Source of the DNA: Bacteroidota bacterium
GTDB taxonomy: Bacteria; Bacteroidota; Bacteroidia; Chitinophagales; Chitinophagaceae
DNA length: 24,000 nucleotides
Direction of reading: 5' to 3'
NCBI GenBank assembly: GCA_005883765.1
Contig: VBAQ01000155.1
Span: forward strand, 2,512 to 26,511
Shown here: positions 5,712 to 20,269 of the stretch, in pieces
How positions within the stretch are numbered: the stretch's first letter is position 1
Layout of the letters: each line of letters starts with the position of its first letter
Translations under genes and position numbers: made by a program
The notes under the pieces: model-generated
Seen by the model: the letters and a program-made list of their open reading frames with translations, nothing else
Databases searched by the model: none
Told to the model about the DNA's origin: nothing

Positions 5712-7628
5712 TCACTTGCGAATGACAAGTCTCTTGATTACATTGTTAATTTGTAACTCATACACGCCGGACTCGAACGAAGACAGGTCAACAGCGGTGC
5801 TTCCGTTACTGTTTACTATTTTTTTATGCCACCTTATGGTGCCGGATAAGTCAAACAATTTTATTTCAGTAAGAGAGGAGAAGTTACCCGTTATAAAGAC
5901 CTGCTCAGAAGCTGGATTCGGATAGAGAACAAACCGATCATTTTTTTGATTGCCATTTACCTGGCGTACTGGCGAATAAAAAAAGACATTATTTTTTTCA
6001 ATGACCCTCAGCCGGTACAAATTGATTCCTTGTTCAGGATGATCATCGGTATAGGAATAATTATTTTTCAGGCTGTCGGCCAGAGCTGAATAAAGTGGGG
6101 ACCAACTATTCGCCATGTTTTTTTCCAGTACGAATTCTTGTGCTATTTCGGGATTTGACACGGCCCATCGCAATTGAATGTTTGATTCATTGCGTGCAGC
6201 TTTAAAATAAATCAACTTCACCGCTAAAGGAATCGAAAGACAGTACGTGGCGGAATCGGTTGATTGCCGAATGACATAAGAAGAAATCGTAGTGCCATTG
6301 GAACCAGCGGCTGCCGGTATCGTGGCATTACATCCAGGATCGCGACTGTACTCCAGGCCGGCAGGTCCACCAGTGACAGAGATCGTGACGGCCGGTGCCG
6401 ACCCCGTAAAATAGATCACGCCACCGCTGCCCCCACCTCCTGCACCATAACATCTCTGCGTAGTGCCGGCATCATCTTCGTCACCTCCTTTACCACCATT
6501 TGCTTGTAGGGTCACCGAACCTGAATAACTGGTTATGTCCATGACAACCGAACCGGCCGCACCACCACCAGATGCTCCATCAGAAACGGCGGTGCCACCT
6601 GCGCCGCCATTGGCCGATATTTTATATCCGTTGCCAATTAGAGTTTCGGCCTCAATAAAAATGAGGCCTCCTCCATTGCCTCCGCCGTTCGAAATCGTGA
6701 GTGTTCCATTTGAGTGTCCAGCGCCTCCTGCACCACCAAAAAATAATTTTGTGCCGTTCCAGTTTTTTAATGCTTTGCCCCCGTCGGCGTGCAGGTCAGT
6801 CGTGCAGCCTGCACTGCTTGAATTGCCACCACCTTTTCCTCCAGCAGCTAAATTGGCACCACCTGCGCCTCCATTATTATGATTGTTGCCTCCACCCCCT
6901 CCATTCGCCGGCGCACCACGACCACCACTTTGCGCCAGGGGAAAATCATAAACGCTCTCACCTTTATACGAACCATTTTGTGGTGCGGTCGAAGAAGCAT
7001 TATAAAAATAATTCGTTGCAGCAAACGGAACATTAAAGCATGTTCCATTACTCAATAAATAACCGCCTCCCCTGAAGCCCGAAGAGTCTGCGTAGACAGG
7101 CGCATTGAGTGTCAAGTCTTGGGATACACTGATGGCGATTACACCACCGGTGCCGTTTGTGTTATTCCAGGGTGAAGCTTTTATTGTATCAATAACATTA
7201 GCCGAATAATATTCCGCGAACTTTACCAGCTGCACCTTGTCAGTAACTGTGTAACTGTTCAAAAAATTATGGAACATAAAAACTGAATCACCATTGATAG
7301 AACATATGATAGCCCGCTCATAGTTGCCGGCATTGTTAAGAGAAGTTGTATCCCCAAAACTGCTGTTATTGGTGGTGATGACTGAGGCGCCCTTCATTTG
7401 TATGAGTAACGTTTTTTGCAGTCGAGCCAGACCCGCGACGGTGTTTAATCTTACACACGCTTTTGCAGGAATAACTTCAACCACTTTGTAGTAGCTGTTT
7501 ACAACACCACTAATATTAGTTTGGGCAGAAGCGAAGAAAAAGCCAAAGACCATTACCTGTAATAAAAAAAGGTAGCAGACTTTCTGGAATAGAAAAGGCA
7601 GGACAGTGGCTGGTCTCACAGGAATCAT
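5712..7628 (-). CDS. Secreted glycine-rich protein with T9SS (Por) C-terminal sorting domain; function unknown
   Basis: 638 aa. Signal peptide ..FGFFFASAQT. The central ~200 aa is Gly/Asn/Ala-rich (GGGGGNNHNNGGAGGANLAAGGKGGG..). The C-terminal ~80 aa (LYPNPASEQVFI..LFDLSGT..GVYELQI..) matches the T9SS type-A CTD pattern. Confidence 0.75.
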   Translation of the reverse strand: MIPVRPATVLPFLFQKVCYLFLLQVMVFGFFFASAQTNISGVVNSYYKVVEVIPAKACVRLNTVAGLARLQKTLLIQMKGASVITTNNSSFGDTTSLNNAGNYERAIICSINGDSVFMFHNFLNSYTVTDKVQLVKFAEYYSANVIDTIKASPWNNTNGTGGVIAISVSQDLTLNAPVYADSSGFRGGGYLLSNGTCFNVPFAATNYFYNASSTAPQNGSYKGESVYDFPLAQSGGRGAPANGGGGGNNHNNGGAGGANLAAGGKGGGNSSSAGCTTDLHADGGKALKNWNGTKLFFGGAGGAGHSNGTLTISNGGGNGGGLIFIEAETLIGNGYKISANGGAGGTAVSDGASGGGAAGSVVMDITSYSGSVTLQANGGKGGDEDDAGTTQRCYGAGGGGSGGVIYFTGSAPAVTISVTGGPAGLEYSRDPGCNATIPAAAGSNGTTISSYVIRQSTDSATYCLSIPLAVKLIYFKAARNESNIQLRWAVSNPEIAQEFVLEKNMANSWSPLYSALADSLKNNYSYTDDHPEQGINLYRLRVIEKNNVFFYSPVRQVNGNQKNDRFVLYPNPASEQVFITGNFSSLTEIKLFDLSGTIRWHKKIVNSNGSTAVDLSSFESGVYELQINNVIKRLVIRK

Positions 7629-7791
7629 GGCCTTCTAAAATTAATAATTGTTTTCTGTAAGGGAAACCAATTAGTGTCTGGGAATAATACATAGTAGATC
7701 AACGATGTGTCCGTGCGGTTAATCCCATAATCAGTCTTGCGATCGTTTGCCAGCTTTCAAATAAAATGCATTCTATTTTTTATCGAGCTTT

Positions 7792-8157
7792 TCAAACGCA
7801 TACCTGAGCATGGTGTGTGGCATCGTTGTCAACAAACCATTTGTGGTTCGCCTGGTTTTGCTTTTGTAGTAAAATGGGTTTGATATTGAATCCTTTTTGA
7901 TAATCGACCAAATAGTCAACCACCTGCTGGCGACTCGGGTAACGCGGTACGTTGCTATCAAATTTTTTATAGGGCAAATTTGACAAACCCTTGTTGGTAT
8001 GCAAATGAAGGCGGTCGTAATGATTACGCCAGGGCGTAGCTACCTGGTCTTCTTTGTCAATGATAAGATATTCGATGTTCTTTTTTTGCAAAGTCGAAGC
8101 ACAAGCCAGGCCCGAGACGCTTGCTCCGATAATGAGAGTATTTGTTTCTTTCATCAT
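7792..8157 (-). pseudogene. Truncated N-terminal fragment of an FAD/NAD(P)-binding flavin monooxygenase-like oxidoreductase
   Basis: The 121-aa ORF starts with a dinucleotide-binding fold (LIIGASVSGLACA..IIDKE) followed by WRNHYDRLHLHT. That is typical of the first third of ~350-450-aa FMO/CzcO-like enzymes. It stops after ..HKWFVDNDATHHAQVCV, and no second nucleotide-binding motif follows. Confidence 0.45.
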
Positions 8158-8166
8158 GAAGCACGA

Positions 8167-10275
8167 TCAAGTTTTCAAATGATATCCCTTTGGTTTTGTA
8201 AAGGCACGCAGACCTGCATGTGAAAGTGTAACACCAAAACCAGAATGTTTTCTTCCGCTCCACGGCAAAGCTGCGCTCACACGATCGCAGCAATTCCAGT
8301 AACCCGTTCCGACGTCTATTCGGTTTAAAATATTTTCTGCCTTTGTTTTATCTGCACTATAAACCGAAGCAGTTAAACCATATTCGGTATCCTTCATTAA
8401 CTCTATTGCTTGCTCTTCATCTCTCACTTTCATAATGCCGATAACCGGACCGAATGATTCATCTTTCATCACACTCATTTCGTGGTTCACATCGACCAGG
8501 ACGGTGGGCTCAAAAAAATATCCCTGCCCGACCGCGTCATTCAGGCGGGCTTTGCTTTTTATTTTTTTTCCACCAGTCAAGATCTTTGCTCCTTTGCTCA
8601 GTGCATCTGCAACCTGGCTCTCTAAAACCCTAAGTTGTTCCTTTCTGCTCAAGGGTCCGATATAAACTCCATTTTCGGTTGGCGGCCCGATCTTCCATGA
8701 CTTCACTTCTTTTACAAATTCATTCAGGTATCGATCGTAAACTTTTTCATGCACATAGATCCTTTCGACGGCACAGCAACTCTGACCGTTGTTGTAAAAA
8801 GCTCCATCCGCAGTAGCAGCAGCAACTGCTTTTATATCCTCTATGTCATCGGCTATATACAAAGGATCTTTCCCACCTAACTCGCATTGGCAAGGGATCA
8901 TCTTTGATGCAAGTTTTTCATAAATATGTTTCCCCGTTTTGTAAGAGCCGGTAAAAAAATACCCGTCGAAGGGAATTTCTAGTAACAACTCGCCAACCCT
9001 TCCCGGCCCGACTGCAATCTGGAAAACATTATTGGGAACACCCGCCTCCTTTAAGAATTTTTCTATTTGTAATCCAGTGAGTGCAGAATGCTCGGAAGCC
9101 TTGTACATCACGGCGTTTCCAGCAAGCAAGGCTGGCACAAAAACGTTTATACCGACGAGATAAGGATAATTCCAGGCAGAGATATTGCAGACCACACCCA
9201 GCGGTTCGTAAGAGATTTTTTCTTCCATGCCATCCCCACTGCTCATGGTCTCATCGCGCAAATATTTTTCTGCGTTATCGGTCAGCCATTTTATCCTTGA
9301 CCTGCCACCTTTTATTTCATTGCGTGATTGTTGCAACGGTTTTCCTACTTCTGAGGTTAGAACCGAAGCAAGTTGTTCAATATGTGTTTCCAAAAGGTCG
9401 GAGAATTTTTTGAGCACTTGCACTCTTTCCGCAAGCGATGATTGATACCAGTCGCGCCGCGCCGATCGCAACAAGTCAAATTTTCTTTGCAGACTGTCCG
9501 CAGTGTCTTCATTTAGCTCCGCAATTACTTGTTCAGTTGCAGGGTTGGTAATCAGAAGTTTTTTCATAGTTGTTTCCCTTACAGCCGCTAGAAATTGTTT
9601 TTTTATATTTTCCGAAAACGGATTTTCTTCTTTGTCTTTCATTCTTTCAGGGTGCCATTGAATACAAAGCATGAAAGCCTTACCGGTTTTGTTTTTGAAC
9701 TCAAGACCCTCAATGATGGTTTCATCGTCATCGTCATAGGCGTTTACCAGCAGATTGTCGCCAATTGCATTGGGATCAATTGCCTGGTGATGTGCGCTGT
9801 TTACATTGCCGGAAACAGAACCTGCGATTTGATGAAGTAACGTATTTCTCCCGGTAGCAATTGAGTGTTCTTTGTCTGACTCTTCTTTCCTGTGTCTTGC
9901 ATTGCCATTGTCAAGGTCTTGTATGAGCTTTCCTCCTTCCAATACATTTATCAATTGCATTCCGCGACAAATTCCCAGGACGGGTAATTTATTTAACTGC
10001 GAATAGCGATAGATCTTTTCTTCAAAATGATCACGTTCCGGCTGCAGAGACGAGGGTTTGTTATTATAAATAGTTTTTCCGTTGTAAAAAGAGGGATGAA
10101 CATCGACACCGCCTGTAAGTACAAAGCCGCCACATTGATAGATATCCTCGATATTATTTTTTTCAAAATTGAGTTCAACCAGTTCTATATCTTTTTGCAG
10201 ATCTTCTGCAGTGAACCAGTTCCAATAATTCTGAAATGAGGTTTTTGTAAAGCTGATACCAATTCTTTTCTTCAT
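8167..10275 (-). CDS. Fusion protein: peptidase C26 gamma-glutamyl hydrolase (PuuD-like class-I amidotransferase) + NAD(P) aldehyde dehydrogenase (PuuC-like)
   Basis: Single 702-aa ORF with no internal stop. Residues 1-236 (nt 9568-10275) carry LPVLGICRGMQLIN (nucleophile Cys) and IQWHPE (His/Glu). Residues 237-702 (nt 8167-9567) carry the ALDH motifs FTGSYKTGK, CELGGKDP (catalytic Glu) and NNGQSCCAVERIYV (catalytic Cys). It starts 3 nt after the stop of the upstream alcohol dehydrogenase. Confidence 0.85.
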   Translation of the reverse strand: MKKRIGISFTKTSFQNYWNWFTAEDLQKDIELVELNFEKNNIEDIYQCGGFVLTGGVDVHPSFYNGKTIYNNKPSSLQPERDHFEEKIYRYSQLNKLPVLGICRGMQLINVLEGGKLIQDLDNGNARHRKEESDKEHSIATGRNTLLHQIAGSVSGNVNSAHHQAIDPNAIGDNLLVNAYDDDDETIIEGLEFKNKTGKAFMLCIQWHPERMKDKEENPFSENIKKQFLAAVRETTMKKLLITNPATEQVIAELNEDTADSLQRKFDLLRSARRDWYQSSLAERVQVLKKFSDLLETHIEQLASVLTSEVGKPLQQSRNEIKGGRSRIKWLTDNAEKYLRDETMSSGDGMEEKISYEPLGVVCNISAWNYPYLVGINVFVPALLAGNAVMYKASEHSALTGLQIEKFLKEAGVPNNVFQIAVGPGRVGELLLEIPFDGYFFTGSYKTGKHIYEKLASKMIPCQCELGGKDPLYIADDIEDIKAVAAATADGAFYNNGQSCCAVERIYVHEKVYDRYLNEFVKEVKSWKIGPPTENGVYIGPLSRKEQLRVLESQVADALSKGAKILTGGKKIKSKARLNDAVGQGYFFEPTVLVDVNHEMSVMKDESFGPVIGIMKVRDEEQAIELMKDTEYGLTASVYSADKTKAENILNRIDVGTGYWNCCDRVSAALPWSGRKHSGFGVTLSHAGLRAFTKPKGYHLKT

Positions 10276-10278
10276 GCG

Positions 10279-11427
10279 CTAAAGTGCTTTGCTATACAAA
10301 TTTCTGAAATCTTCGCGGCTCACTGGTTTTGGATTATTTGGATGGGCAAAATCAGCAATGGCAAGATCGGCCAGCGTTTCGATATGCTCCTGTTTTACGC
10401 CAATGTCCCGAAGTTTATGCGGTATGTTAATTTTTGAATTCAAATCAAATAGATATTTGACTACTGCTTGACCAGTCTCCTCATTCAATTCCAGCGTTCG
10501 TGCGATCCGTTTGAATTTGTCTTCGCATCCGTTGATATTAAATTCCATTCCGTACGGGATATTCACCGCATTCGCCAGTCCATGATGTGTATCCAGCAGC
10601 GATGATAAAGGATGTGCCAGTGAATGCACCACGCCCAGGCCTTTTTGAAAGGCAACCGCACCCATCAAAGATGCGATCAGCATTTTACTCCTTGACTCGA
10701 GATTGGGTTTGTTCACTGCTTTTACCAGTGATTCATTGATCAGTGAAATTCCCTCGAGGGCAATTCCTTCACATAATGGGTGAGGCATCTTTGCCAGGAA
10801 TGCTTCCATGTTATGTGTCAGAGCATCCATGCCTGTGGCTGCGGTTATAAATGCGGGAAGTTCCATTGTCAGTAACGGATCGGCAAAAACGATTTTAGCT
10901 AGCAGTTTGGGCGAAAAAAGAATTCTTTTCTGGTGTGTCCCATCGTCAGCAATAATGGCGCTGCGTCCCACTTCACTGCCGGTTCCTGCCGTAGTGGGTA
11001 TGGTAATGAAATGGGGCACGTCATTGGTCACATACACATCGCCCCCAATCAGATCATCATATTTGAAAAGGTCTTCCCTGTGATTTATTCGCAACGCGAT
11101 CGCTCTTGCGACATCCAGGGCAGCACCGCCACCAATTCCAATGATCGAGTCTCTTTGATTATTGTCGTACACATCGGTACCCTTGTACACGTCTGACTTA
11201 ACCGGGTTTTTATGGAGGTCAAAAAATATTTCTGCCGAAATGTTTTTCTTTTTCAGATCGTTGACGATGTACTTAAAAAAGTCGAGTTGGGCAATATTTG
11301 CATCGGTAACTAATAGAGGCCTTGATAAATTATTTTTTGCCAGGTAATCGCCTAATTCATTACTTGATCCGGCACCAAAGCGAATTGTCGTTGGAAAATT
11401 GTATTGATAGATCTTGTCGAATTTCAT
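10279..11427 (-). CDS. Iron-containing (group III) alcohol dehydrogenase
   Basis: 382 aa with ATG start. Fe-ADH pattern: GIGGGAALDVARA, PTTAGTGSEV, and metal-binding His contexts (MDALTHNMEA, VVHSLAHPLS..HHGLANA). Confidence 0.85.
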   Translation of the reverse strand: MKFDKIYQYNFPTTIRFGAGSSNELGDYLAKNNLSRPLLVTDANIAQLDFFKYIVNDLKKKNISAEIFFDLHKNPVKSDVYKGTDVYDNNQRDSIIGIGGGAALDVARAIALRINHREDLFKYDDLIGGDVYVTNDVPHFITIPTTAGTGSEVGRSAIIADDGTHQKRILFSPKLLAKIVFADPLLTMELPAFITAATGMDALTHNMEAFLAKMPHPLCEGIALEGISLINESLVKAVNKPNLESRSKMLIASLMGAVAFQKGLGVVHSLAHPLSSLLDTHHGLANAVNIPYGMEFNINGCEDKFKRIARTLELNEETGQAVVKYLFDLNSKINIPHKLRDIGVKQEHIETLADLAIADFAHPNNPKPVSREDFRNLYSKAL

Positions 11428-11471
11428 GATTTACGGACTGTATTATGAACCTTATTTTTCCCAGTCGCCCT

Positions 11472-12029
11472 AACCTTAGTAGAAAAATGGATACTTAGCG
11501 TCATTAGCTTATTACCTTATTTTGACCGTTTTTGGGCGGTGTAACGTATTTTGATAAAATCTCAAAAACTCCTCATACTCTTCTGCGAAACTTATTTTAC
11601 GATGATGTTCCGGCTGATTAAGTATGTATTTACAGACCCGATCAACATCTGATTTTGATACAGAAAAGGCAGATGCAGTTTCTTGCCAGGCAAATCGACT
11701 GTTGCACAGCTTATTTTGATTTATGAATTTTTGAGAACTTTCTGCAACTGTGGAGGCAAGATTTTCTTCTGATATTTTGGGAGAGCGGGATACGAGGAAG
11801 TGGACATGCTCAGGATTTGCATAAATGGCATATAATTTAGAATCATTATTATTCACTACGCCAGTAATATATTTTTCAATTCTTTCGCGATGGTTCTCTA
11901 AAATAAGAGGTAAGCGATGCAGTGTTGTAAATATAAAATGAGTATATAAATTGTTGTATTCTATTTTCATTACAAATGAGAATAAGGTAATAAGGTTGAA
12001 TCAAGGTACAATTTTTTTCTACTAAGGTT
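11472..12029 (-). mobile_element. 558-bp unit: Y1 transposase-like gene bracketed by perfect inverted repeats (REPtron/IS-like)
   Basis: The outer 16-bp perfect IR is aaccttagtagaaaaa (11472-11487) against tttttctactaaggtt (12014-12029). The inner 14-bp perfect IR is cttattaccttatt (11508-11521) against aataaggtaataag (11981-11994). Extra aaggt/acctt copies occur on both sides. No target-site duplication was seen. Confidence 0.6.
11512..11970 (-). CDS. IS200/IS605-type Y1 (HUH) transposase-like protein, RAYT-like
   Basis: 152 aa. Y1_Tnp pattern: YTHFIFTT..R.P.I, HUH motif PEHVHFLV, FAWQE..SAFSVS, and catalytic Tyr context CKYILNQPEHHRK. Confidence 0.8.
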   Translation of the reverse strand: MKIEYNNLYTHFIFTTLHRLPLILENHRERIEKYITGVVNNNDSKLYAIYANPEHVHFLVSRSPKISEENLASTVAESSQKFINQNKLCNSRFAWQETASAFSVSKSDVDRVCKYILNQPEHHRKISFAEEYEEFLRFYQNTLHRPKTVKIR

Positions 12030-12094
12030 GACCAAAAAAAATTTTAACAAAATCTCTTTTTCTAAATTAATATTGCTTGACCTAGTCGTGATCT

Positions 12095-13453
12095 CTAAAT
12101 AATCTCGAAATACCTTTTGTACTCCCAATCGGTTACAGCTTTCAGGTGCTGTCTCCATTCCCATTCTCTTGTTTGTGTGAAATGTTCAACAAATTTTTCT
12201 CCGAAAAGTTCTTTCGCAATTTTTGAAGTTTTCATTTGTCGGGTTGCTTCAATGAGTGTGGAGGGAAGAACACCATTGGAATCATCTTGGTAGCCATTTC
12301 CCGAGGTGGGCGGTTGTTTTAGCTTCAATTTATTTTTAATTCCGTACAAGCCTGAGGCCAGGCAACCTGCCATGGCGAGATAAGGATTTACATCGGAACC
12401 GATCACCCGTGTTTCGAGTCGACAAGATTTGCTGCTATTTGCGAGCACCCTCAATGCAACTGTCCTGTTATCCATTCCCCAGGTGAGTGTAGTAGGCGCC
12501 CATGCACCCTGGACCAATCTTTTATAGCTATTTATATTTGGAGCAAACAGGGGCAGTATTTCAGGCAAGCAATATAACTGGCCGGCGAGATAATTTTTTG
12601 TCAGCTCGCTCATTCTGAATTTATCCTTTTCATTATAAAAAAGATTTTTTTTTCCTGCTTTGTCCCATAAGCTTTGATGAACGTGGCCACCACAACCCGG
12701 GAGACCTTCATTGATCTTGGCCATAAAGGTTGCGATGATTCCATGCCTGTACGCAATTTCTTTCACGGCTGTTTTGAAAAGTACAGCTCTATCGGCGGCT
12801 TCTAACACATCTGAATAAGTGATGGCGGCCTCATATGTGCCGGGACCCGTTTCAGTGTGTAATCCCTCTAATGGCACATTGAATTTTTTCAGCCAGTCAA
12901 AGAGGTTGGTGAAGTAAGGATTCTCGGAAGAGCTGCGGAGAATTGAGTATCCAAACATCCCCGGAGTAAGCGGTGTAAGATTTTTGAACTGCTTATCATT
13001 AGCCGTTTGTGGAGTTTCTGCAAAATTGTACCATTCAAACTCCTGCGAGAAAAAAGGAGAGAAGCCTTGCCTGGTTGCTTCATTCATTATTTTTTTCAGC
13101 AATTGTCTTGGACAAACCTGGGAAGGATCACCTTTTTCATCTGTGAGCTCACCAAGGAAGAACGGCACATCATTTTCCCAGGGAATTTTTCTGAAAGTAT
13201 TTATATCTAACACGCCCGGGCTATCAGGATAACCGGTATGCCATCCTGTGAATTGGACATTATCATATACCACGTCGCCTGTATCCCACCCAAAAATCAC
13301 ATTGCAAAAACCTAAGCCATTTTCAATGGCGGAAGAAAATTTCTCAGCAGAAATATATTTGCCTCTCAATATCCCGTCAATATCGCTGAACGCGATCTTG
13401 ACTTTTCCGGAAGGATGGTCTTTCACATATTGGATAATTTCTTTTGTTGTCAT
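12095..13453 (-). CDS. Glutamine synthetase-family gamma-glutamyl ligase (PuuA / GlnA4 / IpuC-like)
   Basis: 452 aa with ATG start. GS catalytic-domain motifs: HTETGPGTYEA, GCGGHVHQS, NSYKRL, DNRTVALRV, CRLETRVIGSDVNPYL. Its size and divergent motifs fit the GS-like amine ligases rather than housekeeping GlnA. Confidence 0.8.
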   Translation of the reverse strand: MTTKEIIQYVKDHPSGKVKIAFSDIDGILRGKYISAEKFSSAIENGLGFCNVIFGWDTGDVVYDNVQFTGWHTGYPDSPGVLDINTFRKIPWENDVPFFLGELTDEKGDPSQVCPRQLLKKIMNEATRQGFSPFFSQEFEWYNFAETPQTANDKQFKNLTPLTPGMFGYSILRSSSENPYFTNLFDWLKKFNVPLEGLHTETGPGTYEAAITYSDVLEAADRAVLFKTAVKEIAYRHGIIATFMAKINEGLPGCGGHVHQSLWDKAGKKNLFYNEKDKFRMSELTKNYLAGQLYCLPEILPLFAPNINSYKRLVQGAWAPTTLTWGMDNRTVALRVLANSSKSCRLETRVIGSDVNPYLAMAGCLASGLYGIKNKLKLKQPPTSGNGYQDDSNGVLPSTLIEATRQMKTSKIAKELFGEKFVEHFTQTREWEWRQHLKAVTDWEYKRYFEII

Positions 13454-13533
13454 CTTGATGTTTAAAAATAAAAAGTACTAATTATTTAGATTCTTTTCCC
13501 GCAAATTTTTGATTGAACGCTGGACTCGTGATT

Positions 13534-14192
13534 AAGTCCGAAGGACTTTAACCTGCCTGCCGGGAAGCAAGTATCATTGACGGTGAGCGTAGCGCACGGG
13601 AAGTAAAGCGAAGAATGCCACAACCCCGAAGGGGTTGAATATCGGTAACCGTGAGTGTAAACTCACGCGAGGAGAAATAACGAATGGCACAATCCCGAAG
13701 GGGTTGAATATCGGTAACCGTGAGTGTAAACTCACACGAGGAGAAATAACGAATGGCACAACCCCGAGGGGGTTGAATATCGGTAACCGTGAGTGTAAAC
13801 TCACACGAGGAAAAATAACGAATGGCACAGTCCCGAAGGGGTTGAATATCGGTAACCGTGAGTGTAAACTCACAGAAGGGAAGTGAAGAATGGCACAACC
13901 CCAAAGGGGTTGAATATCGTTAACCGTGAGTGTAAACTCACGCGAGGAGAAATAACGAATGGCACAATCCCGAAGGGGTTGAATATTGGTAACCATGAGT
14001 GTAAACTCACGGAAGGGAAGTGAGGAAGGCCACAACCCCGAAGGGGTTGAATATCGTTAACCGTGAGTGTAAACTCACGCGAGGAGAAATAACGAATGGC
14101 ACAACCCCGAAGGGGTTGAATATCGGTAACCGTGAGTGTAAACTCACGGAAGGGAAGTGAGGAAGGCCACAACCCCGAAGGGGTTGAATATT
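13534..14192. repeat. Tandem array of ~10 units of a 68/69-bp double-hairpin module
   Basis: Hairpin A (aacccc-gaa-ggggtt and variants) starts at 13622, 13691, 13760, 13829, 13897, 13966, 14034, 14103 and 14171, with spacing 69,69,69,68,69,68,69,68. Hairpin B (ccgtgagt-gtaa-actcacgg) lies between successive A copies (8 copies). The linker has two forms: cgaggagaaataacgaatggcac, and ggaagggaagtgaggaaggccac. A degenerate unit at 13534-13621 has A-like aagtcc-gaa-ggactt and B-like ggtgagc-gta-gcgcac. Confidence 0.9.
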
Positions 14193-14224
14193 GCTACAAC
14201 ACAATGAACCGTTCGGGTCATGCC

Positions 14225-14278
14225 TGATTAGCCTCTGATAAGATCAGAGGCTAATCACAGTAAAGCCCTTGGGGCTTT
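14225..14278 (-). terminator. Two stem-loops just downstream of the permease stop (possible terminator / 3-prime stabiliser)
   Basis: A perfect 15-bp stem, tgattagcctctgat (14225-14239) against atcagaggctaatca (14243-14257), has a 3-nt loop. A 7-bp stem, aaagccc/gggcttt (14262-14278), sits next to it. No clear U-tract follows on the minus strand, so intrinsic-terminator function is uncertain. Confidence 0.35.
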
Positions 14279-14301
14279 CACCTCCATTCAGCTTCAAACT
14301 A

Positions 14302-15609
14302 TTATTTCGCAAATAATTTAAAAGCAATGAAGCCAATGCCAAGAATTAAAAAATAAATCACTGCCAATTTAAAATTATAAACCGTCATTGCAACAAACGA
14401 AAAAGCAGCAATGAACAATGCAGCCACCGGAAATAAAGGATACATCGGCACTTTGAAAGGACGTTCCAATTGTGGTTCTTTTTTTCTGAGCCGCAACAAG
14501 GCGATCATCGACACAATATATAACGTAAGTGCTCCAAATACCGAGATGGTAATGATCTCTGCTGTTTTACCTGTCAGCAGGGCGATGATGCCGATCACCA
14601 TATTTACCAGCAGTGCATTGGATGGTGTTTGAAATCTCGGATGAATAGTTGCTAAAAAAGGCGGGGCAAATCTTACTCTTCCAAATTCAAAAGTTGCTCT
14701 CCCTGCCGCGAGTATGATGCCATGAAAAGAAGCGATCAAGCCGAACAGCCCTATGGTTATGAGCAAATGATACATCATGTTGTCGCTACCAACGACATGA
14801 CTCAGCGCCAAAGGCAGCGGAGAATCGGAAGTACTGCCGTCAGTTTTATAAACGATGGCTTCCCATCCCGCCACGCCGACCGAGCTAATGAAAACAAGTA
14901 TGCACAAAACCACCAGTGTTGCAATGGCCGAACCGAAACCAAGCAGCATCGTTCGCTGAGGGTGAATAGCCTCTTCGGCTACATTCGCGACTCCTTCAAT
15001 GGCCAGGAAAAACCAGATAGCAAATGGAGTTGCAGCGAAGGCGCCGGCCCATCCGTGAGGAAAAGCGTTGTGTTGTAAATTTTTTAATTCAAAATGAGGA
15101 ATCGTGATGCCAGTAAACAATAGCAACTCCCCCACAGCCAGCATAGTGATGACCAATTCAAACACGGCGGCCGCTTTTACACCGTAAATATTCAACGCCG
15201 TAAAAACGACATAACTGAAAATGGCGATGGCCAATATCGGTATTTGCGGAAAAAATAAATTGAAGTAGGCGCCGATAGCAAAGGCGATGGCGGGCGGTGC
15301 AAAAATGAATTCTATATTTTGTGCCATGCCGGCAATGAATCCCCAATCTTTCCCAAGTGCCCGGTTCGCATAATCAAAACCTCCGCCGGCTTTGGGTATA
15401 GCGCAGGCCAGTTCTGTGTAGCTGAATGTGAAAGTGACGTAGAGAATAATGATAAAAAATGTGGCGATGGCGAGGCCCAATGTTCCTCCTTGTTCCAGTC
15501 CAAGATTCCAGCCGAAGTACATTCCGGAGATCACATAACCCACACCAAGGCCCCAAAGCATCAGCGGAGTGAGTGTTCTTTTTAATTCATTTGTGGGAGT
15601 TACTGACAA
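14302..15609 (-). CDS. eat: Ethanolamine permease (Eat family, APC superfamily)
   Basis: 435 aa. The N-terminus LKRTLTPLMLWGLGVGYVISGMYFGWNLGLEQGG and IPKAGGGFDYANRALG match my memory of the Eat/TIGR00908 signature. The start codon at 15607-15609 is TTG. No in-frame ATG lies upstream, and the next Met would delete the conserved N-terminus. Confidence 0.75.
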   Translation of the reverse strand: MSVTPTNELKRTLTPLMLWGLGVGYVISGMYFGWNLGLEQGGTLGLAIATFFIIILYVTFTFSYTELACAIPKAGGGFDYANRALGKDWGFIAGMAQNIEFIFAPPAIAFAIGAYFNLFFPQIPILAIAIFSYVVFTALNIYGVKAAAVFELVITMLAVGELLLFTGITIPHFELKNLQHNAFPHGWAGAFAATPFAIWFFLAIEGVANVAEEAIHPQRTMLLGFGSAIATLVVLCILVFISSVGVAGWEAIVYKTDGSTSDSPLPLALSHVVGSDNMMYHLLITIGLFGLIASFHGIILAAGRATFEFGRVRFAPPFLATIHPRFQTPSNALLVNMVIGIIALLTGKTAEIITISVFGALTLYIVSMIALLRLRKKEPQLERPFKVPMYPLFPVAALFIAAFSFVAMTVYNFKLAVIYFLILGIGFIAFKLFAK

Positions 15610-15673
15610 GTGAAGATGTTGGTTGTTTTTAAATTGTTATTATTATGTGCCGAGCCGCACTGCTACTATTAGT

Positions 15674-15694
15674 CTTTCGTTGCGTCGCACTCTT
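15674..15694. repeat. Left arm of a 21-bp perfect inverted repeat bracketing the histidine kinase gene
   Basis: ctttcgttgcgtcgcactctt is the exact reverse complement of 16954-16974. The similarity extends imperfectly to about 31 nt (..taatagta..). Confidence 0.85.
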
Positions 15695-15816
15695 GTACGT
15701 TCTTAAGCCTGGTCAACACCCGGTCTGGATTGGCATTTTACGTCGTCGGTGCTTAAATAATTTGGTTGCTGGTGAGGCCCGCACGCAGGCTTCGGCGCAA
15801 CACCAACAACTGCACC

Positions 15817-16866
15817 CTACTCCTTCTTCCTCTCCAAAGTAAAACCAATTGTCGTCCCTACATGCTCAGTACTTCGCACATGAATAGACTGTCCATGTGC
15901 TTCAATAATATGTTTGCAAATGGCTAAACCTAAACCCGAGCCTGTGATATCCAGGCTGCGTCCTTCCTCCGTTCTGTAAAATCGTTCAAATATTCTTGAC
16001 AAATGCCTTTCAGCCATCCCAATTCCGTCATCACTGATCTCAACCAAAACATGTTTCTCATCGGTAATATACATGCTGGCTGTAATATTGCCTCCAAACT
16101 TGCCATACTTAATCGAGTTTTCAACGAGATTCAGAATCACCTGCCTGATCTTTTCCTTATCGGCAAAAACTGTCAGCGGGGATTCGCAACCTTTTTTAAT
16201 GCTGCAACGAATATTCTTTTGCTCCGCTTTTATTGAAAGGCTTTCAAAAACTTCTTTGACCAAATCCTGGATAATAAAATTCTCTTTGTAGACGACCTGT
16301 TCGCCTCGCTCCAGCTTTGAAATTTCATCAAGATCATTCATAAGGTTTACCAGCCTGTCTATATTACGGGACGTTTTTTCTAAGAAAGGACGGTTGACTT
16401 CAGGATTTTCCAATGCACCTTGCAATAATGTATCTACATAGCCTTGTATGGCGAACACAGGGGTTTTGAACTCATGAGCCAGGTTTTGCAAAAATTCTTT
16501 CCGGAATTGCTCATTTCTTTTTAGTAACTCAATTTCTTCTACTTGTTTTTCCGCCCATTCTTCCACATCTTCTCTTACTTCATCAATACTTTTCTGTGGC
16601 AACAGGTATTGATAATATGTTTCTTCCTTTTTACTTGCTTTCGTCTGATAAATGAATTTATAGATGAGTTTGATCTTTCGATAAATAAAGCGCTCAAGAG
16701 TAAATGCGATCAGTGCATAGCTCCCAATAAAAATGATAATAAAGGATACCACGAGCACCTGCCAGCCCTCATGCAGAATATAAATTCCGATGCTGATGGG
16801 CACGGATAGCAGCAAAGCTGTAAACGCAGAAAGCTTGCGTGGAGAAATGTTCTTCGTGTTAAGCAT
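15817..16866 (-). CDS. Sensor histidine kinase (two TM helices, minimal external loop; HisKA + HATPase_c)
   Basis: H-box LAHEFKTPV, N-box NLVENSIKY, and G-boxes DDGIGM and GSGLGLAI. The ORF-track start (16968) lies inside a repeat arm. The ATG at 16864-16866 gives MLNTKNISPRKLSAFTALLLSVPISIG.., with TM helices directly at the N-terminus, so I prefer it. Confidence 0.8.
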   Translation of the reverse strand: MLNTKNISPRKLSAFTALLLSVPISIGIYILHEGWQVLVVSFIIIFIGSYALIAFTLERFIYRKIKLIYKFIYQTKASKKEETYYQYLLPQKSIDEVREDVEEWAEKQVEEIELLKRNEQFRKEFLQNLAHEFKTPVFAIQGYVDTLLQGALENPEVNRPFLEKTSRNIDRLVNLMNDLDEISKLERGEQVVYKENFIIQDLVKEVFESLSIKAEQKNIRCSIKKGCESPLTVFADKEKIRQVILNLVENSIKYGKFGGNITASMYITDEKHVLVEISDDGIGMAERHLSRIFERFYRTEEGRSLDITGSGLGLAICKHIIEAHGQSIHVRSTEHVGTTIGFTLERKKE

Positions 16867-16953
16867 GAACCCCCAAACCCCCTGAAGGGGGCTTTTGTAA
16901 ACTCCGATAAACGGAGTTGTTTTTAATAATGTTGATTGGTGAACTGGATGTTG

Positions 16954-16974
16954 AAGAGTGCGACGCAACGAAAG
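16954..16974. repeat. Right arm of the 21-bp perfect inverted repeat (partner of 15674-15694)
   Basis: aagagtgcgacgcaacgaaag. It lies in the 219-bp spacer between the response regulator stop and the kinase start. Confidence 0.85.
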
Positions 16975-17085
16975 TTTAATAGTAATACTATAGCTGGTTA
17001 CACAAACATCAACTTCAAAATTAAAGTAACTATAATTTTTTTAAAGTCTAATCGATTTGCGTCCCCCCTTTATGGGGACAGGGGG

Positions 17086-17763
17086 TCACAACTCAAATTT
17101 ATACCCCACGCCTTTCACCGTGGTAATGCAATCAACACCCAGTTTTTGCCGGATCTTTCGGATGTGAACATCTATGGTGCGATCGCCGACGATGACATCG
17201 TTGCCCCAAACCTGGCTGAGAATTTCATTGCGCAAAAAAACACGCCCCGGTCGTGAAGCAAGTAAATGAAGAAGCTCAAATTCTTTTTTTGCAAGGAGAA
17301 TATCCTTTCCCTCCAGTTGAACTATGAATTTCTCGGGATCGATAACGAGGCCATCCACTTCGACAATTTTACTTTCTTTTGTTGGCACTCTGCGGAAAAG
17401 AGCATTTACACGACTTATAAAGACCTTCGGACTGATGGGCTTGCTCACGTAATCATCAGCACCGGTTTCAAGACCTCGTATTTGAGTGCTCTCGTCGTTT
17501 AAAGCAGTTAAAAAAATAATGAGTGTGTTTCTGAATGCAGACTGGCTTCTCAATATTTCACAAACCTGAACACCACTTTTCTTCGGCATCATGATGTCCA
17601 ACACGACCAGATCAGGCTGAAAAATTTTAGCTTTCTCAATGGCTTCGTCACCGTCTTTGGCAGTTATGACCTGGTAGCCTTCATTGAGGAGATTGTATTT
17701 CAGAATTTCAAGAATATCGGGTTCATCATCGGCAATTAAAACCTTCCTTGCCTTCGCTTCCAT
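17086..17763 (-). CDS. OmpR/PhoB-family response regulator
   Basis: 225 aa. The receiver domain has VLIADDEPDI, DLVVLDIMMPKKSG and the conserved Lys context (YVSKP). The C-terminal winged helix has KKEFELLHLL..RTIDVHIRKIRQKL..GVGYKF. Confidence 0.9.
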   Translation of the reverse strand: MEAKARKVLIADDEPDILEILKYNLLNEGYQVITAKDGDEAIEKAKIFQPDLVVLDIMMPKKSGVQVCEILRSQSAFRNTLIIFLTALNDESTQIRGLETGADDYVSKPISPKVFISRVNALFRRVPTKESKIVEVDGLVIDPEKFIVQLEGKDILLAKKEFELLHLLASRPGRVFLRNEILSQVWGNDVIVGDRTIDVHIRKIRQKLGVDCITTVKGVGYKFEL

Positions 17764-17789: not shown

Positions 17790-18029
17790 CATGAAGATTA
17801 TTTCTAAAGGAAATTGACAATTTTGCATAACACAGACTTAATAAAAACTTAACCTGTCCCTGCGAAGCTGGGTGGCTGACGCTCTTTTTTGGATCAGCTA
17901 AATTATATGAGGATCTTCTTCTTCGGTCATACCAATTGCATCGATTTGGCCTTTTGTCGCGTCAAATCATAATAAATAGTACTAATGCTCATTTAGAGAA
18001 CGAGGGCATTGTATTTGACAGAGGGATGC

Positions 18030-18037
18030 TAACTTTG
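18030..18037 (+). promoter_or_regulatory. Candidate Bacteroidota -7 promoter box (TAACTTTG) for the 739-aa protein
   Basis: TAACTTTG fits TAnnTTTG and lies 12 nt upstream of the ATG at 18050. It sits inside the N-terminal extension proposed by the ORF track, which argues for the 18050 start. Confidence 0.35.
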
Positions 18038-18049
18038 CGAACGATCCTT

Positions 18050-20269
18050 ATGATTTCAACACCCAGATACCTTGTTCTTCTCGTTTACCTGCTTGCTTTT
18101 AAACCTTTAATGGCCCAGGCGGTTGACCCTGACCCTGTCAGGGACCTGAAGCCTCCAAAGAACCGTGAGCTATTTCATGATTTTGTAGATAAGCAACAAA
18201 AAGAGATCTTAAGATCAGATGGTAAGGCCGATAATGAATTCCGGCCTTCGTCGGACGAAGAAATAAATTTTATTCTAACAAAAGCAGTCACCACGAACGT
18301 TGATTGGGTTCAGTATCGTATAGAAAAAGATACCAGTTTAAACTCGCAGGCCAAGATAAAATATCTTCGAGGCCTCGAAAACGTTCTGAAATATTTCAAC
18401 AATAACTGGCGGCGGGGAAATGTTGGTACGGCTCAACTGCCTGCGATCATTGATGAATACGAAAATTGCATGAGGGCCGATATCGCGAATGCCAGTATCG
18501 AAACCATCATCGATCACCAGCCTTATGATGTGGGAATGAATCTTATTAGCGCTGGGATCTTTGATAAAAATGCAGGATACAGGAACTCTCAATATATTTT
18601 ACTAAAAAAATATTGTGCCAGGTATCCCGATCAAACTTTCTTAAAACTCAGAAGCAACACAGATGTTTCGTTTCTTGATAGTCTTATAAAGGTGGCTGGC
18701 TACCGCGACCCGGGCCAGTTGTACAACTATGCCGCTGCCAACGACAGACTGGGAGCCGCGATCCGTAGAATTGACGATCCTCTTATCAGTGCCGTTTCAA
18801 AAATGGCAACCAGCAACAGTGGGCGCTGGTATTTTCCTTTTTTGGATAACATCATGAAAGGCAAGATGAGCATCAGTGAGATTGACGCTGTGAAGGATGA
18901 TTCACTAAAATATTACCGGCTGCTGGTGAGGACACATCTTGATTATCTGGAAAGGGCACAGAATAAAGACACCGCCTACGGCTATAAAGAACTGGAAAAA
19001 CGGATTGAAACCAAGGCGAGAGACATTTTTGTAAACACGATCAATGCCCTGCATGAGGTGGATAATCTCGCGGTACGATTTAAGATCATTCAGCCTTTAA
19101 CCGCCGAGGAACTCTACTACCTTGCCGTAACAACAGATGGCATCATATACACTTCCAGTTTCGTAAAAGGTGTTTATCCATTGATGATGACAAGGGCCAA
19201 TCAGCATGGTGATTCATTACTAATGAATGTAAAGTTTGACAGGTACCGCAAGTTCATCAAAATGTGTGCGGGCTATAATACGCTGAGCAATTTTCTGAAC
19301 ACTTTTCAGGCGAAGAAAAATAATGACACGGAAAGCGACGCGGAAAAGCTGATGAGAGCATTTGTCGGAAAGCTTGAAGAATCGGGCGGCCTTGAGGATG
19401 GCGTGGATGTGGCAGATTCTTATGCAAGTATTGCTGAAACAATCAAGCCTCTGGCAGAGAAGATGCTTTTGAATGTAAAAGCAAATTACGAAAGGAACCT
19501 TACGAGCAACAATAAACGGGGCGTGGTCATGTACAATTTGTTGTACAAGCTTTTTTTATCGGCCGACACGAATAATCATATCGATCTTTCAAAGGAATTT
19601 GGAATACCTCCTGTGTACAATGTTCCTTTTAAAGCATTATCAAATGATACCGGTCGCGTAGTGATGCAGGTTTTTTTCTATGGGGATAAGGATGGAAAAA
19701 CAATTTTCCAGGGATTTAAGAGAATGTTTGATCCCAGGCTCTGGAGGATAACCAGCACCCAAAATTGGATCGCGATAAATTCCACGAAAGGCAGACCCGT
19801 TTCTATTTACGCAAACTTGCCTTTACCCGAGGAAGATGACCAGGATAAAAATGCGCAGGATGCATTAGACACGTTTTTATTACGAAACAATCTTTACCCA
19901 ACTGTAGTGATACACAGAGGTCATAGCTATAATGCTCCGTACACGATTGCACAGATTCTTCCCTCGGCAAAAATTGTTTTTATGGGTTCATGTGGCGGCT
20001 ATTATTTGATCCATGACATATTAAAACACTCGCCCGATGCACACATCATCACTTCCAAGCAAATTGGGAAGACGACGGTGAACCAGCCATTTTTCAATCT
20101 GTTAATGGAAAAAGTACGAACCGGGAATAATATTGACTGGATTCCTTTTTGGGAAGAATTGGAGAAAAAAGTGAAAGTAGAAGGGTTTGAGGATTATATA
20201 CCTCCATACAAAAACCTCGGCGCGATTTTCATCAAGGCCTATAAAAGAGCAATGGGGGATGAGGACTAG
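18050..20269 (+). CDS. Secreted protein of unknown function (~739 aa) with possible C-terminal His/Cys dyad
   Basis: A long ORF with no family I can recognise. The start is chosen at the ATG at 18050 because it gives the signal peptide MISTPRYLVLLVYLLAFKPLMAQA. The ORF-track start at 17936 adds 38 non-hydrophobic residues. The C-terminal ~200 aa alternates predicted strand-like segments and contains TVVIHRGHSY..(~20 aa)..KIVFMGSCGGY. Confidence 0.6.
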   Translation: MISTPRYLVLLVYLLAFKPLMAQAVDPDPVRDLKPPKNRELFHDFVDKQQKEILRSDGKADNEFRPSSDEEINFILTKAVTTNVDWVQYRIEKDTSLNSQAKIKYLRGLENVLKYFNNNWRRGNVGTAQLPAIIDEYENCMRADIANASIETIIDHQPYDVGMNLISAGIFDKNAGYRNSQYILLKKYCARYPDQTFLKLRSNTDVSFLDSLIKVAGYRDPGQLYNYAAANDRLGAAIRRIDDPLISAVSKMATSNSGRWYFPFLDNIMKGKMSISEIDAVKDDSLKYYRLLVRTHLDYLERAQNKDTAYGYKELEKRIETKARDIFVNTINALHEVDNLAVRFKIIQPLTAEELYYLAVTTDGIIYTSSFVKGVYPLMMTRANQHGDSLLMNVKFDRYRKFIKMCAGYNTLSNFLNTFQAKKNNDTESDAEKLMRAFVGKLEESGGLEDGVDVADSYASIAETIKPLAEKMLLNVKANYERNLTSNNKRGVVMYNLLYKLFLSADTNNHIDLSKEFGIPPVYNVPFKALSNDTGRVVMQVFFYGDKDGKTIFQGFKRMFDPRLWRITSTQNWIAINSTKGRPVSIYANLPLPEEDDQDKNAQDALDTFLLRNNLYPTVVIHRGHSYNAPYTIAQILPSAKIVFMGSCGGYYLIHDILKHSPDAHIITSKQIGKTTVNQPFFNLLMEKVRTGNNIDWIPFWEELEKKVKVEGFEDYIPPYKNLGAIFIKAYKRAMGDED

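Follow-up and report, generated by a model that had tools for sequence, protein, structure and literature searches.

Streptomyces coelicolor GlnA4 is a gamma-glutamylethanolamide synthetase, as shown both genetically and biochemically (PMC6529630). The later steps of ethanolamine use in this organism were proposed from the gene cluster SCO1610-1615, with a dehydrogenase, an aldehyde dehydrogenase (ALDH) and, in other streptomycetes, a transporter (PMC6529630). The gamma-glutamyl amidohydrolase of the cluster carries the label 'glutamine amidotransferase', at least in the legend to Fig. 2 of that paper (PMC6529630). The same route was proposed for Chromohalobacter salexigens (PMC9397018), and in Phaeobacter sp. 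MED193 proteomics found proteins of the route to be induced on phosphatidylethanolamine (PMC10132767). Here we analyze a gene from a Chitinophagaceae genome (Bacteroidota bacterium, assembly GCA_005883765.1) that encodes a Peptidase C26 family hydrolase and an ALDH in one chain. It lies on the minus strand at 8167..10275 of a 24,000-nucleotide stretch (contig VBAQ01000155.1, positions 2,512 to 26,511), called the window below. The gene probably encodes a bifunctional enzyme for the last two steps of an ethanolamine gamma-glutamylation pathway, born in the Chitinophagaceae by loss of the stop codon and spacer between two adjacent genes.

The operon in the window resembles the S. coelicolor-type clusters in having a transporter, a glutamine-synthetase-like (GS-like) ligase, an alcohol dehydrogenase, an ALDH and a gamma-glutamyl amidohydrolase. 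The predicted chemistry is also alike, and would end in glycine and glutamate. In those clusters, however, all of the enzymes are separate proteins, whereas in the window the hydrolase and the ALDH form one chain. The Phaeobacter transporter is a TRAP system, while that of the window is an APC permease. The described clusters come from other phyla and are likened to the window by gene function. By this analogy, the operon is a probable member of the gamma-glutamylation route for ethanolamine. Until now, descriptions of this route have come from Actinobacteria and Proteobacteria alone, and a widespread Bacteroidota operon would now be placed within it. Ethanolamine is the head group of phosphatidylethanolamine, so the operon would be relevant to how Bacteroidota of soil and water recycle nitrogen and carbon.

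The E. coli Puu pathway (PuuA-D) follows a related logic, with tagging by a GS-like enzyme, oxidation by an ALDH and removal of the tag by a Peptidase C26 protein. It differs from the window in its diamine substrate, its flavin oxidase PuuB and its separate proteins; the window has an iron-containing alcohol dehydrogenase (Fe-ADH) and the fused chain. The fusion is a modest evolutionary variant, and introduces no new enzyme class or mechanism.

The fused chain and its homologues

The gene is a single uninterrupted open reading frame (ORF) of 702 aa with an ATG start. A first-pass annotation, made from the letters of the window, had described it as one polypeptide with the hydrolase at the N terminus, and had proposed a domain search as a check. 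The search finds both domains, in that order, on the one chain. Peptidase_C26 (PF07722) matches aa 46-210 with an E value of 1.3e-38 (133.4 bits against a gathering score of 20.5), and Aldedh (PF00171) matches aa 238-696 with an E value of 1.4e-127 (426.5 bits against 23). The Aldedh match is nearly full length, covering model positions 7-459 of 461. The domains meet at AVRETT/MKKLLITNP, where the first-pass annotation had placed an in-frame ATG. That codon, Met237, is indeed present at 9565..9567 and reads from 9567 to 9565 on the minus strand.

The class-I glutamine-amidotransferase-like C26 domain (aa 1-236, minus strand, 9568..10275) carries Cys103 in GICRG and His208 and Glu210 in WHPE. 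Hydrolysis of a gamma-glutamyl amide is its predicted activity. The ALDH domain (aa 237-702, minus strand, 8167..9567) carries the oxyanion residue Asn369, the general base Glu465 in ELGGK and the catalytic Cys500 in GQSCC. A degenerate active site in either domain would have spoken against a working double enzyme, as the first-pass annotation pointed out, and none is seen. When 121 fused homologues are aligned, the C26 triad and the three ALDH residues show no variation, and the triad is also kept in stand-alone homologues. The ALDH domain matches a plant aminoaldehyde dehydrogenase (4i8p, E 3e-72), with Cys500 and Glu465 aligned to its GQICS and ELGGK motifs.

Among 5.8 billion clustered proteins, full-length fused proteins of 690-715 aa were recovered from at least 120 distinct 90%-identity clusters, a count that is a lower bound. 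All contain PF07722 and PF00171. The cluster members listed are 73-81% identical to the window protein, and are labelled Chitinophagaceae, Parafilimonas, Chitinophagales or Bacteroidota. The fusion is already visible in automated database annotations, as many of these proteins are named 'ALDH / gamma-glutamyl-gamma-aminobutyrate hydrolase' by JGI. The usual length of a fused homologue is 693 aa, while the window protein and the homologue P0012 both have 702. Around aa 571-585, the ALDH of the window has about nine extra residues, reading GGKKIKSKARLNDAVGQGYFFEPT against a consensus of GGKKIxxKGYFFEPT.

Two alternatives to a single functional chain have to be considered. The two genes lie only 0-60 nt apart in most relatives, and a sequencing or assembly error that deleted a stop codon or made a frameshift at the junction might then look like a fusion. 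The first-pass annotation had named a stop codon or frameshift at this site as the result that would overturn it. We give such an error practically no credence. The same uninterrupted ORF occurs in at least 120 independent 90%-identity clusters drawn from four assembly sources (ENA, JGI, NCBI and Logan), some of them on contigs of 0.5-4.6 Mb, including ones of 0.85 Mb and 4.6 Mb. This shared architecture excludes a junction frameshift or assembly error, and the junction peptide is itself conserved across the alignment of fused homologues. The fusion gene is real and uninterrupted. The other alternative is that the fusion exists mainly at the level of the transcript, with the ALDH made separately from Met237 beside or instead of the 702-aa chain, a possibility that the first-pass annotation had raised. 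Met237 aligns with the start methionine of every split ALDH, which identifies it as the start codon of the ancestral ALDH gene. Of the 121 fused homologues, 93 still have this methionine, and an A-rich stretch lies upstream of it. Bacteroidota are not known to rely on Shine-Dalgarno sites, so that internal initiation may occur in this genome on sequence grounds. In the remaining 28 homologues, however, Ser, Ile, Val, Gly or another residue stands in place of Met237 while both domains stay intact, and internal initiation is therefore dispensable. The residues beside it are at least as well conserved (K239 in 114 of 121, L240 in 110 of 121), which argues against any special constraint on the methionine. 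Separate translation may thus occur here without being essential, and we think it unlikely to be the main mode of expression. Met237 is a relic within a probably bifunctional chain.

Split and fused operons in the Bacteroidota

The first-pass annotation had also called for a survey of how widespread this architecture is. We sampled loci by scanning one genome per GTDB species with a profile built from the C26-domain alignment, which gave at least 80 loci and is a sample rather than a census; 81 related loci were then annotated by tblastn with the window proteins. The gene order permease, GS-like ligase, Fe-ADH, C26, ALDH is found in 56 of the 81, and loci on short contigs retain at least Fe-ADH, C26 and ALDH. 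These 56 operons span Chitinophagaceae, Cytophagales, Saprospiraceae, Sphingobacteriales, Pedobacter and others. A stop codon separates C26 from ALDH in 54 of them, the two genes usually abutting or overlapping. The two sampled loci with a fused gene are L001 and L002 (80% identity). On the 4.6-Mb contig of L001, the permease, GS-like, Fe-ADH and fusion genes follow one another with gaps of 4-83 nt between called genes, and with neither a transposase nor a repeat. The operon is conserved, its split state is ancestral, and the fused form is restricted to Chitinophagaceae-type clusters (at least 120) plus one further lineage described below.

Some stand-alone C26 proteins stop exactly at the junction, as in P0253 (233 aa) and in P0170 (238 aa), whose cluster has Pedobacter schmidteae among its members. 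When 1.84 billion representatives at 50% identity were searched, P0121 was the only further full-length fused one, and the matches listed also include ALDH and C26 relatives that stand alone, at 48-57% identity.

The split Bacteroidota pairs are the nearest comparison to the fused gene. Those of Segetibacter koreensis DSM 18137, Chitinophaga arvensicola, Flavihumibacter profundi and Pedobacter nutrimenti lie in orthologous operons with the same gene order, and their proteins are 53-62% (C26) and 58-71% (ALDH) identical to the corresponding domains of the window. They keep a stop codon with a gap of about 0-15 nt or an overlap, whereas in the window both stop and spacer are gone. Segetibacter koreensis is the closest split relative, with a junction that reads '...AVKNSI* TTI MQIINP'. 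Its junction DNA is GTA AAA AAC AGT ATT TAA ACA ACT ATT ATG (V K N S I stop T T I M), in the same frame as the window junction, GTA AGG GAA ACA ACT ATG (V R E T T M). The linker-less junction of the window is what would be expected if a stop codon and 9 nt of spacer had been lost. Either a 12-nt in-frame deletion that took both, or a TAA to GAA change with read-through of the spacer and additional small deletions, would fit these sequences.

A neighbor-joining tree of ALDH domains (gap-trimmed columns, 50 bootstraps, P0037 left out) places the Chitinophagaceae fused proteins beside split Segetibacter koreensis, and they are monophyletic in 35 of the 50 bootstraps. The single chain, judged from these sequences, arose in one Chitinophagaceae sub-lineage from abutting split genes. 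The origin by loss of a stop or spacer that the first-pass annotation had suggested is borne out by the 54 split operons and by the in-frame stop and spacer of Segetibacter. Its description of the fusion as recent holds relative to the age of the operon, but not in a stricter sense, as the fusion is fixed across a sub-clade whose listed members share 73-81% identity with the window protein, and a junction-spanning fragment, P0123, is 62% identical.

A second lineage, P0121/P0272, has proteins of 691 aa that are 56% identical to the window protein and have the same C26-Aldedh order, with a near-linkerless junction, ...RKYQAPTMDIHNP. The 90%-identity cluster of P0121 holds a fragment annotated as Prosthecobacter sp. 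The ALDH domain of P0121 joins the Chitinophagaceae fused clade in none of the 50 bootstraps and is placed among the split genes. An independent second fusion is therefore probable, and there were likely at least two such events, in the Chitinophagaceae and in the Prosthecobacter-labelled lineage. P0153 (792 aa, in a cluster of 11) has a GATase domain at aa 46-180 and, after a long spacer, an Aldedh domain at aa 329-782. As the latter falls outside the operon ALDHs as an outgroup, P0153 may be a third, unrelated amidotransferase-ALDH fusion.

The survey yielded several further observations. Among the split loci L003-L081, identity to the window is 35-62% for C26, 53-71% for ALDH, 60-88% for Fe-ADH and 61-80% for the GS-like ligase. 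C26 diverges much faster than its operon neighbors and falls into two identity classes, one of about 46-62% and the other of about 35-45%. A relaxation of constraint could account for this, as could replacement of the gene. Two loci, L013 and L028, have permease, GS-like, Fe-ADH and C26 genes, yet the next 600 nt downstream hold no ALDH although their contigs extend far enough to contain one; their ALDH may be encoded elsewhere in the genome. L057 is a full Bacteroidota-type operon on a contig labelled Beijerinckiaceae bacterium, with permease, GS-like, Fe-ADH and ALDH proteins that are 67-80% identical to those of the window, and reflects either a mis-binned contig or horizontal transfer.

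The proposed pathway and its substrate

The fusion gene is the last gene of the operon in the window. The first is an APC-family permease (minus strand, 14302..15609), followed by the GS-like ligase (minus strand, 12095..13453, Pfam Gln-synt_C), the proposed gamma-glutamylethanolamide synthetase, and by the Fe-ADH (minus strand, 10279..11427, Pfam Fe-ADH and ADH_Fe_C), the proposed gamma-glutamylethanolamide dehydrogenase. The GS-like, Fe-ADH, C26 and ALDH functions are all encoded on the minus strand within 8167..13453. Fe-ADH lies directly upstream of C26, its stop codon only 3 nt ahead of the start of the fusion ORF. Across the operon loci that carry it, Fe-ADH is 60-89% identical to that of the window.

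In the pathway we propose, the permease would bring ethanolamine into the cell, and the GS-like ligase would use ATP to join it to the gamma-carboxyl group of glutamate, giving gamma-glutamylethanolamide. The Fe-ADH would oxidize the alcohol to gamma-glutamyl-aminoacetaldehyde. The C-terminal ALDH domain of the fusion (Cys500/Glu465) would convert this aldehyde to gamma-glutamylglycine, from which the N-terminal C26 domain (Cys103/His208/Glu210) would release glycine and glutamate. The ALDH would thus act before C26, so that the order of domains and genes is opposite to the order of reactions.

The choice of substrate follows from the neighbors of the fusion. Oxidation first by an alcohol dehydrogenase and then by an ALDH implies a primary amino alcohol, and the permease exceeds the cut-off of the TIGR00908 'ethanolamine permease' equivalog (440.9 bits against 381.75). 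Together, the Fe-ADH and this permease point to ethanolamine rather than putrescine. The best Protein Data Bank (PDB) matches of the GS-like ligase are 11zs (1e-82) and 5dm3 (1e-70), the other glutamine synthetase entries listed reaching at best 4.6e-56. We take 5dm3 to be C. salexigens Csal_0679, an enzyme of the gamma-glutamylation pathway.

A number of points weigh against this assignment. The GS-like, Fe-ADH and ALDH proteins all fall below every NCBIfam equivalog cut-off, and their specificities are therefore drawn from context; no GlnA4-type specificity model was among the NCBIfam matches examined for the GS-like protein. The top names below cut-off, 4-hydroxybutyrate dehydrogenase (327 bits) and succinic semialdehyde dehydrogenase (SSADH, 375 bits), hint at other C4 substrates, and 3-aminopropanol and 4-aminobutanol would fit the same enzyme logic. 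In the window, an IS200-like gene and a 586-bp repeat array break the operon, making its expression here uncertain. We found no paper on the C26-ALDH fusion, on the Bacteroidota operon or on its phenotype in randomly barcoded transposon sequencing (RB-TnSeq). Finally, an AlphaFold2 prediction for the 702-aa chain, made with 46 aligned sequences of close homologues, has a mean predicted local distance difference test score (pLDDT) of 64.4 and a predicted template modeling score (pTM) of 0.71, with many catalytic-core segments below 50. At this quality the model does not bear on how the domains pack or on whether a tunnel joins them.

The first-pass annotation had placed the enzyme in the Puu pathway, and a Puu-type role deserves comparison with other amino alcohols as a rival to ethanolamine. 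A Puu-type fusion would oxidize gamma-glutamyl-gamma-aminobutyraldehyde with a PuuC-like domain and hydrolyze gamma-glutamyl-gamma-aminobutyrate (gamma-glutamyl-GABA) with a PuuD-like one. The operon shares the gamma-glutamylation logic and a GS-like gene with that pathway, and the name given to homologues by JGI implies the same substrate. Structural matches lean this way as well: PuuD (6vtv) and its Pseudomonas aeruginosa homologue 7d4r are among five PDB matches of the C26 domain, and 4lih, a PuuC-like gamma-Glu-aminobutyraldehyde dehydrogenase, matches the ALDH domain at 1e-60. The PuuD match, however, reaches just E 2.7e-4, and the ALDH scores 247.9 bits against a cut-off of 850 for the PuuC equivalog NF007352, and the GS-like ligase scores 214.8 against 650 for the gamma-glutamylputrescine synthetase equivalog NF045547. 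Between 8167 and 15609 there is no PuuB-type oxidase, aminotransferase or PuuP/PotE-type putrescine importer. In their place stand an ethanolamine-permease equivalog and an Fe-ADH, an enzyme that would have no role on a diamine. The putrescine assignment was not upheld, and we regard it as improbable. Somewhat less remote, but still doubtful, is a pathway for other or broadly chosen primary amino alcohols, in which 3-amino-1-propanol would yield beta-alanine and 4-amino-1-butanol GABA. The three soluble enzymes below equivalog cut-offs, with C4-related names nearest, leave room for this, and GS-like gamma-glutamylating enzymes can have a broad amine range, as is known for a 1-naphthylamine enzyme (PMC11335346). 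What speaks for ethanolamine instead is that the permease passes the ethanolamine-permease cut-off, and that published clusters with the same gene set are tied to ethanolamine.

The fusion may confer a kinetic benefit through fixed 1:1 stoichiometry, co-localization or the channelling that the first-pass annotation had proposed. A stronger proposal is that the fusion is an obligate bifunctional machine, a C26-decorated ALDH oligomer that hands gamma-glutamylglycine from the dehydrogenase site to the hydrolase site, with an advantage selected at least twice independently. We hold this to be a long shot. Were it true, the split orthologues would be a ready-made control for how channelling evolves from operon neighbors. 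The fusion is, in either case, a natural example of consecutive pathway enzymes merging, and with split orthologues as controls and a probable second occurrence it offers a test case for kinetic benefit.

Insertions and neighboring genes

Two elements outside the pathway interrupt the operon of the window. An IS200-like Y1 transposase gene (minus strand, 11512..11970, Pfam Y1_Tnp) lies between the GS-like and Fe-ADH genes. Its 152-aa product scores 61.5 bits for Y1_Tnp and 52.1 bits for the NCBIfam IS200 model against a cut-off of 55, with a weak match to the REP-associated tyrosine transposase (RAYT; REP, repetitive extragenic palindrome) model. Syntenic loci lack a transposase at this site, L001 among them with a gap of 86 nt; L001 does have a 38%-identical Y1_Tnp gene about 3 kb upstream of its permease.

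The other element is a tandem array at 13606..14191, between the permease and GS-like genes, in which Tandem Repeats Finder identifies 8.4 copies of a 69-nt unit. Copies of the 69-nt unit match at 87%, and the array also reads as a 137-nt double unit with a 93% match. Each 69-nt unit contains two hairpin-capable palindromes, AACCCCTTCGGGGTT and GTGAGTTTACACTCAC; the first occurs in nine copies, against 0.02 expected. The array sits in an 848-nt gap, compared with 44 nt in L001 by tblastn hits and 23 nt between its called genes. The 69-nt motif was found in none of the 81 related loci, and Rfam gave no match at gathering threshold for window positions 7000-16000. The transposase lies about 1.6 kb from this hairpin-rich array, which suggests a possible REP/RAYT-like pairing.

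Other loci carry differing inserts in the permease/GS-like and GS-like/Fe-ADH gaps (L002, L011, L012, L021, L049, L052, L054 and L055). L002, for instance, has a transposase-like ORF of 275 aa and L011 an insert of 2.3 kb, while L049 and L054 have a 127-aa ORF in common and L012 and L052 encode membrane proteins of 243-252 aa. The intergenic sites of the operon appear to be recurrent insertion points.

A 777-aa ORF with a TTG start (plus strand, 17936-20269) adjoins a two-component system at 15817-17763 and has no Pfam or NCBIfam match. Directly downstream of the fusion gene, a 121-aa ORF (minus strand, 7792-8157) covers only positions 2-115 of a 346-position model of ArsO-family flavin monooxygenases. 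It is probably a truncated gene remnant, as the next gene begins at 7628 with no trace of the remainder in between. That next gene (minus strand, 5712-7628) encodes a 638-aa protein rich in Gly, Ala and Asn with a type IX secretion system (T9SS) C-terminal sorting domain, and coincides with a local peak in GC content, 0.51 compared with a window value of about 0.42.

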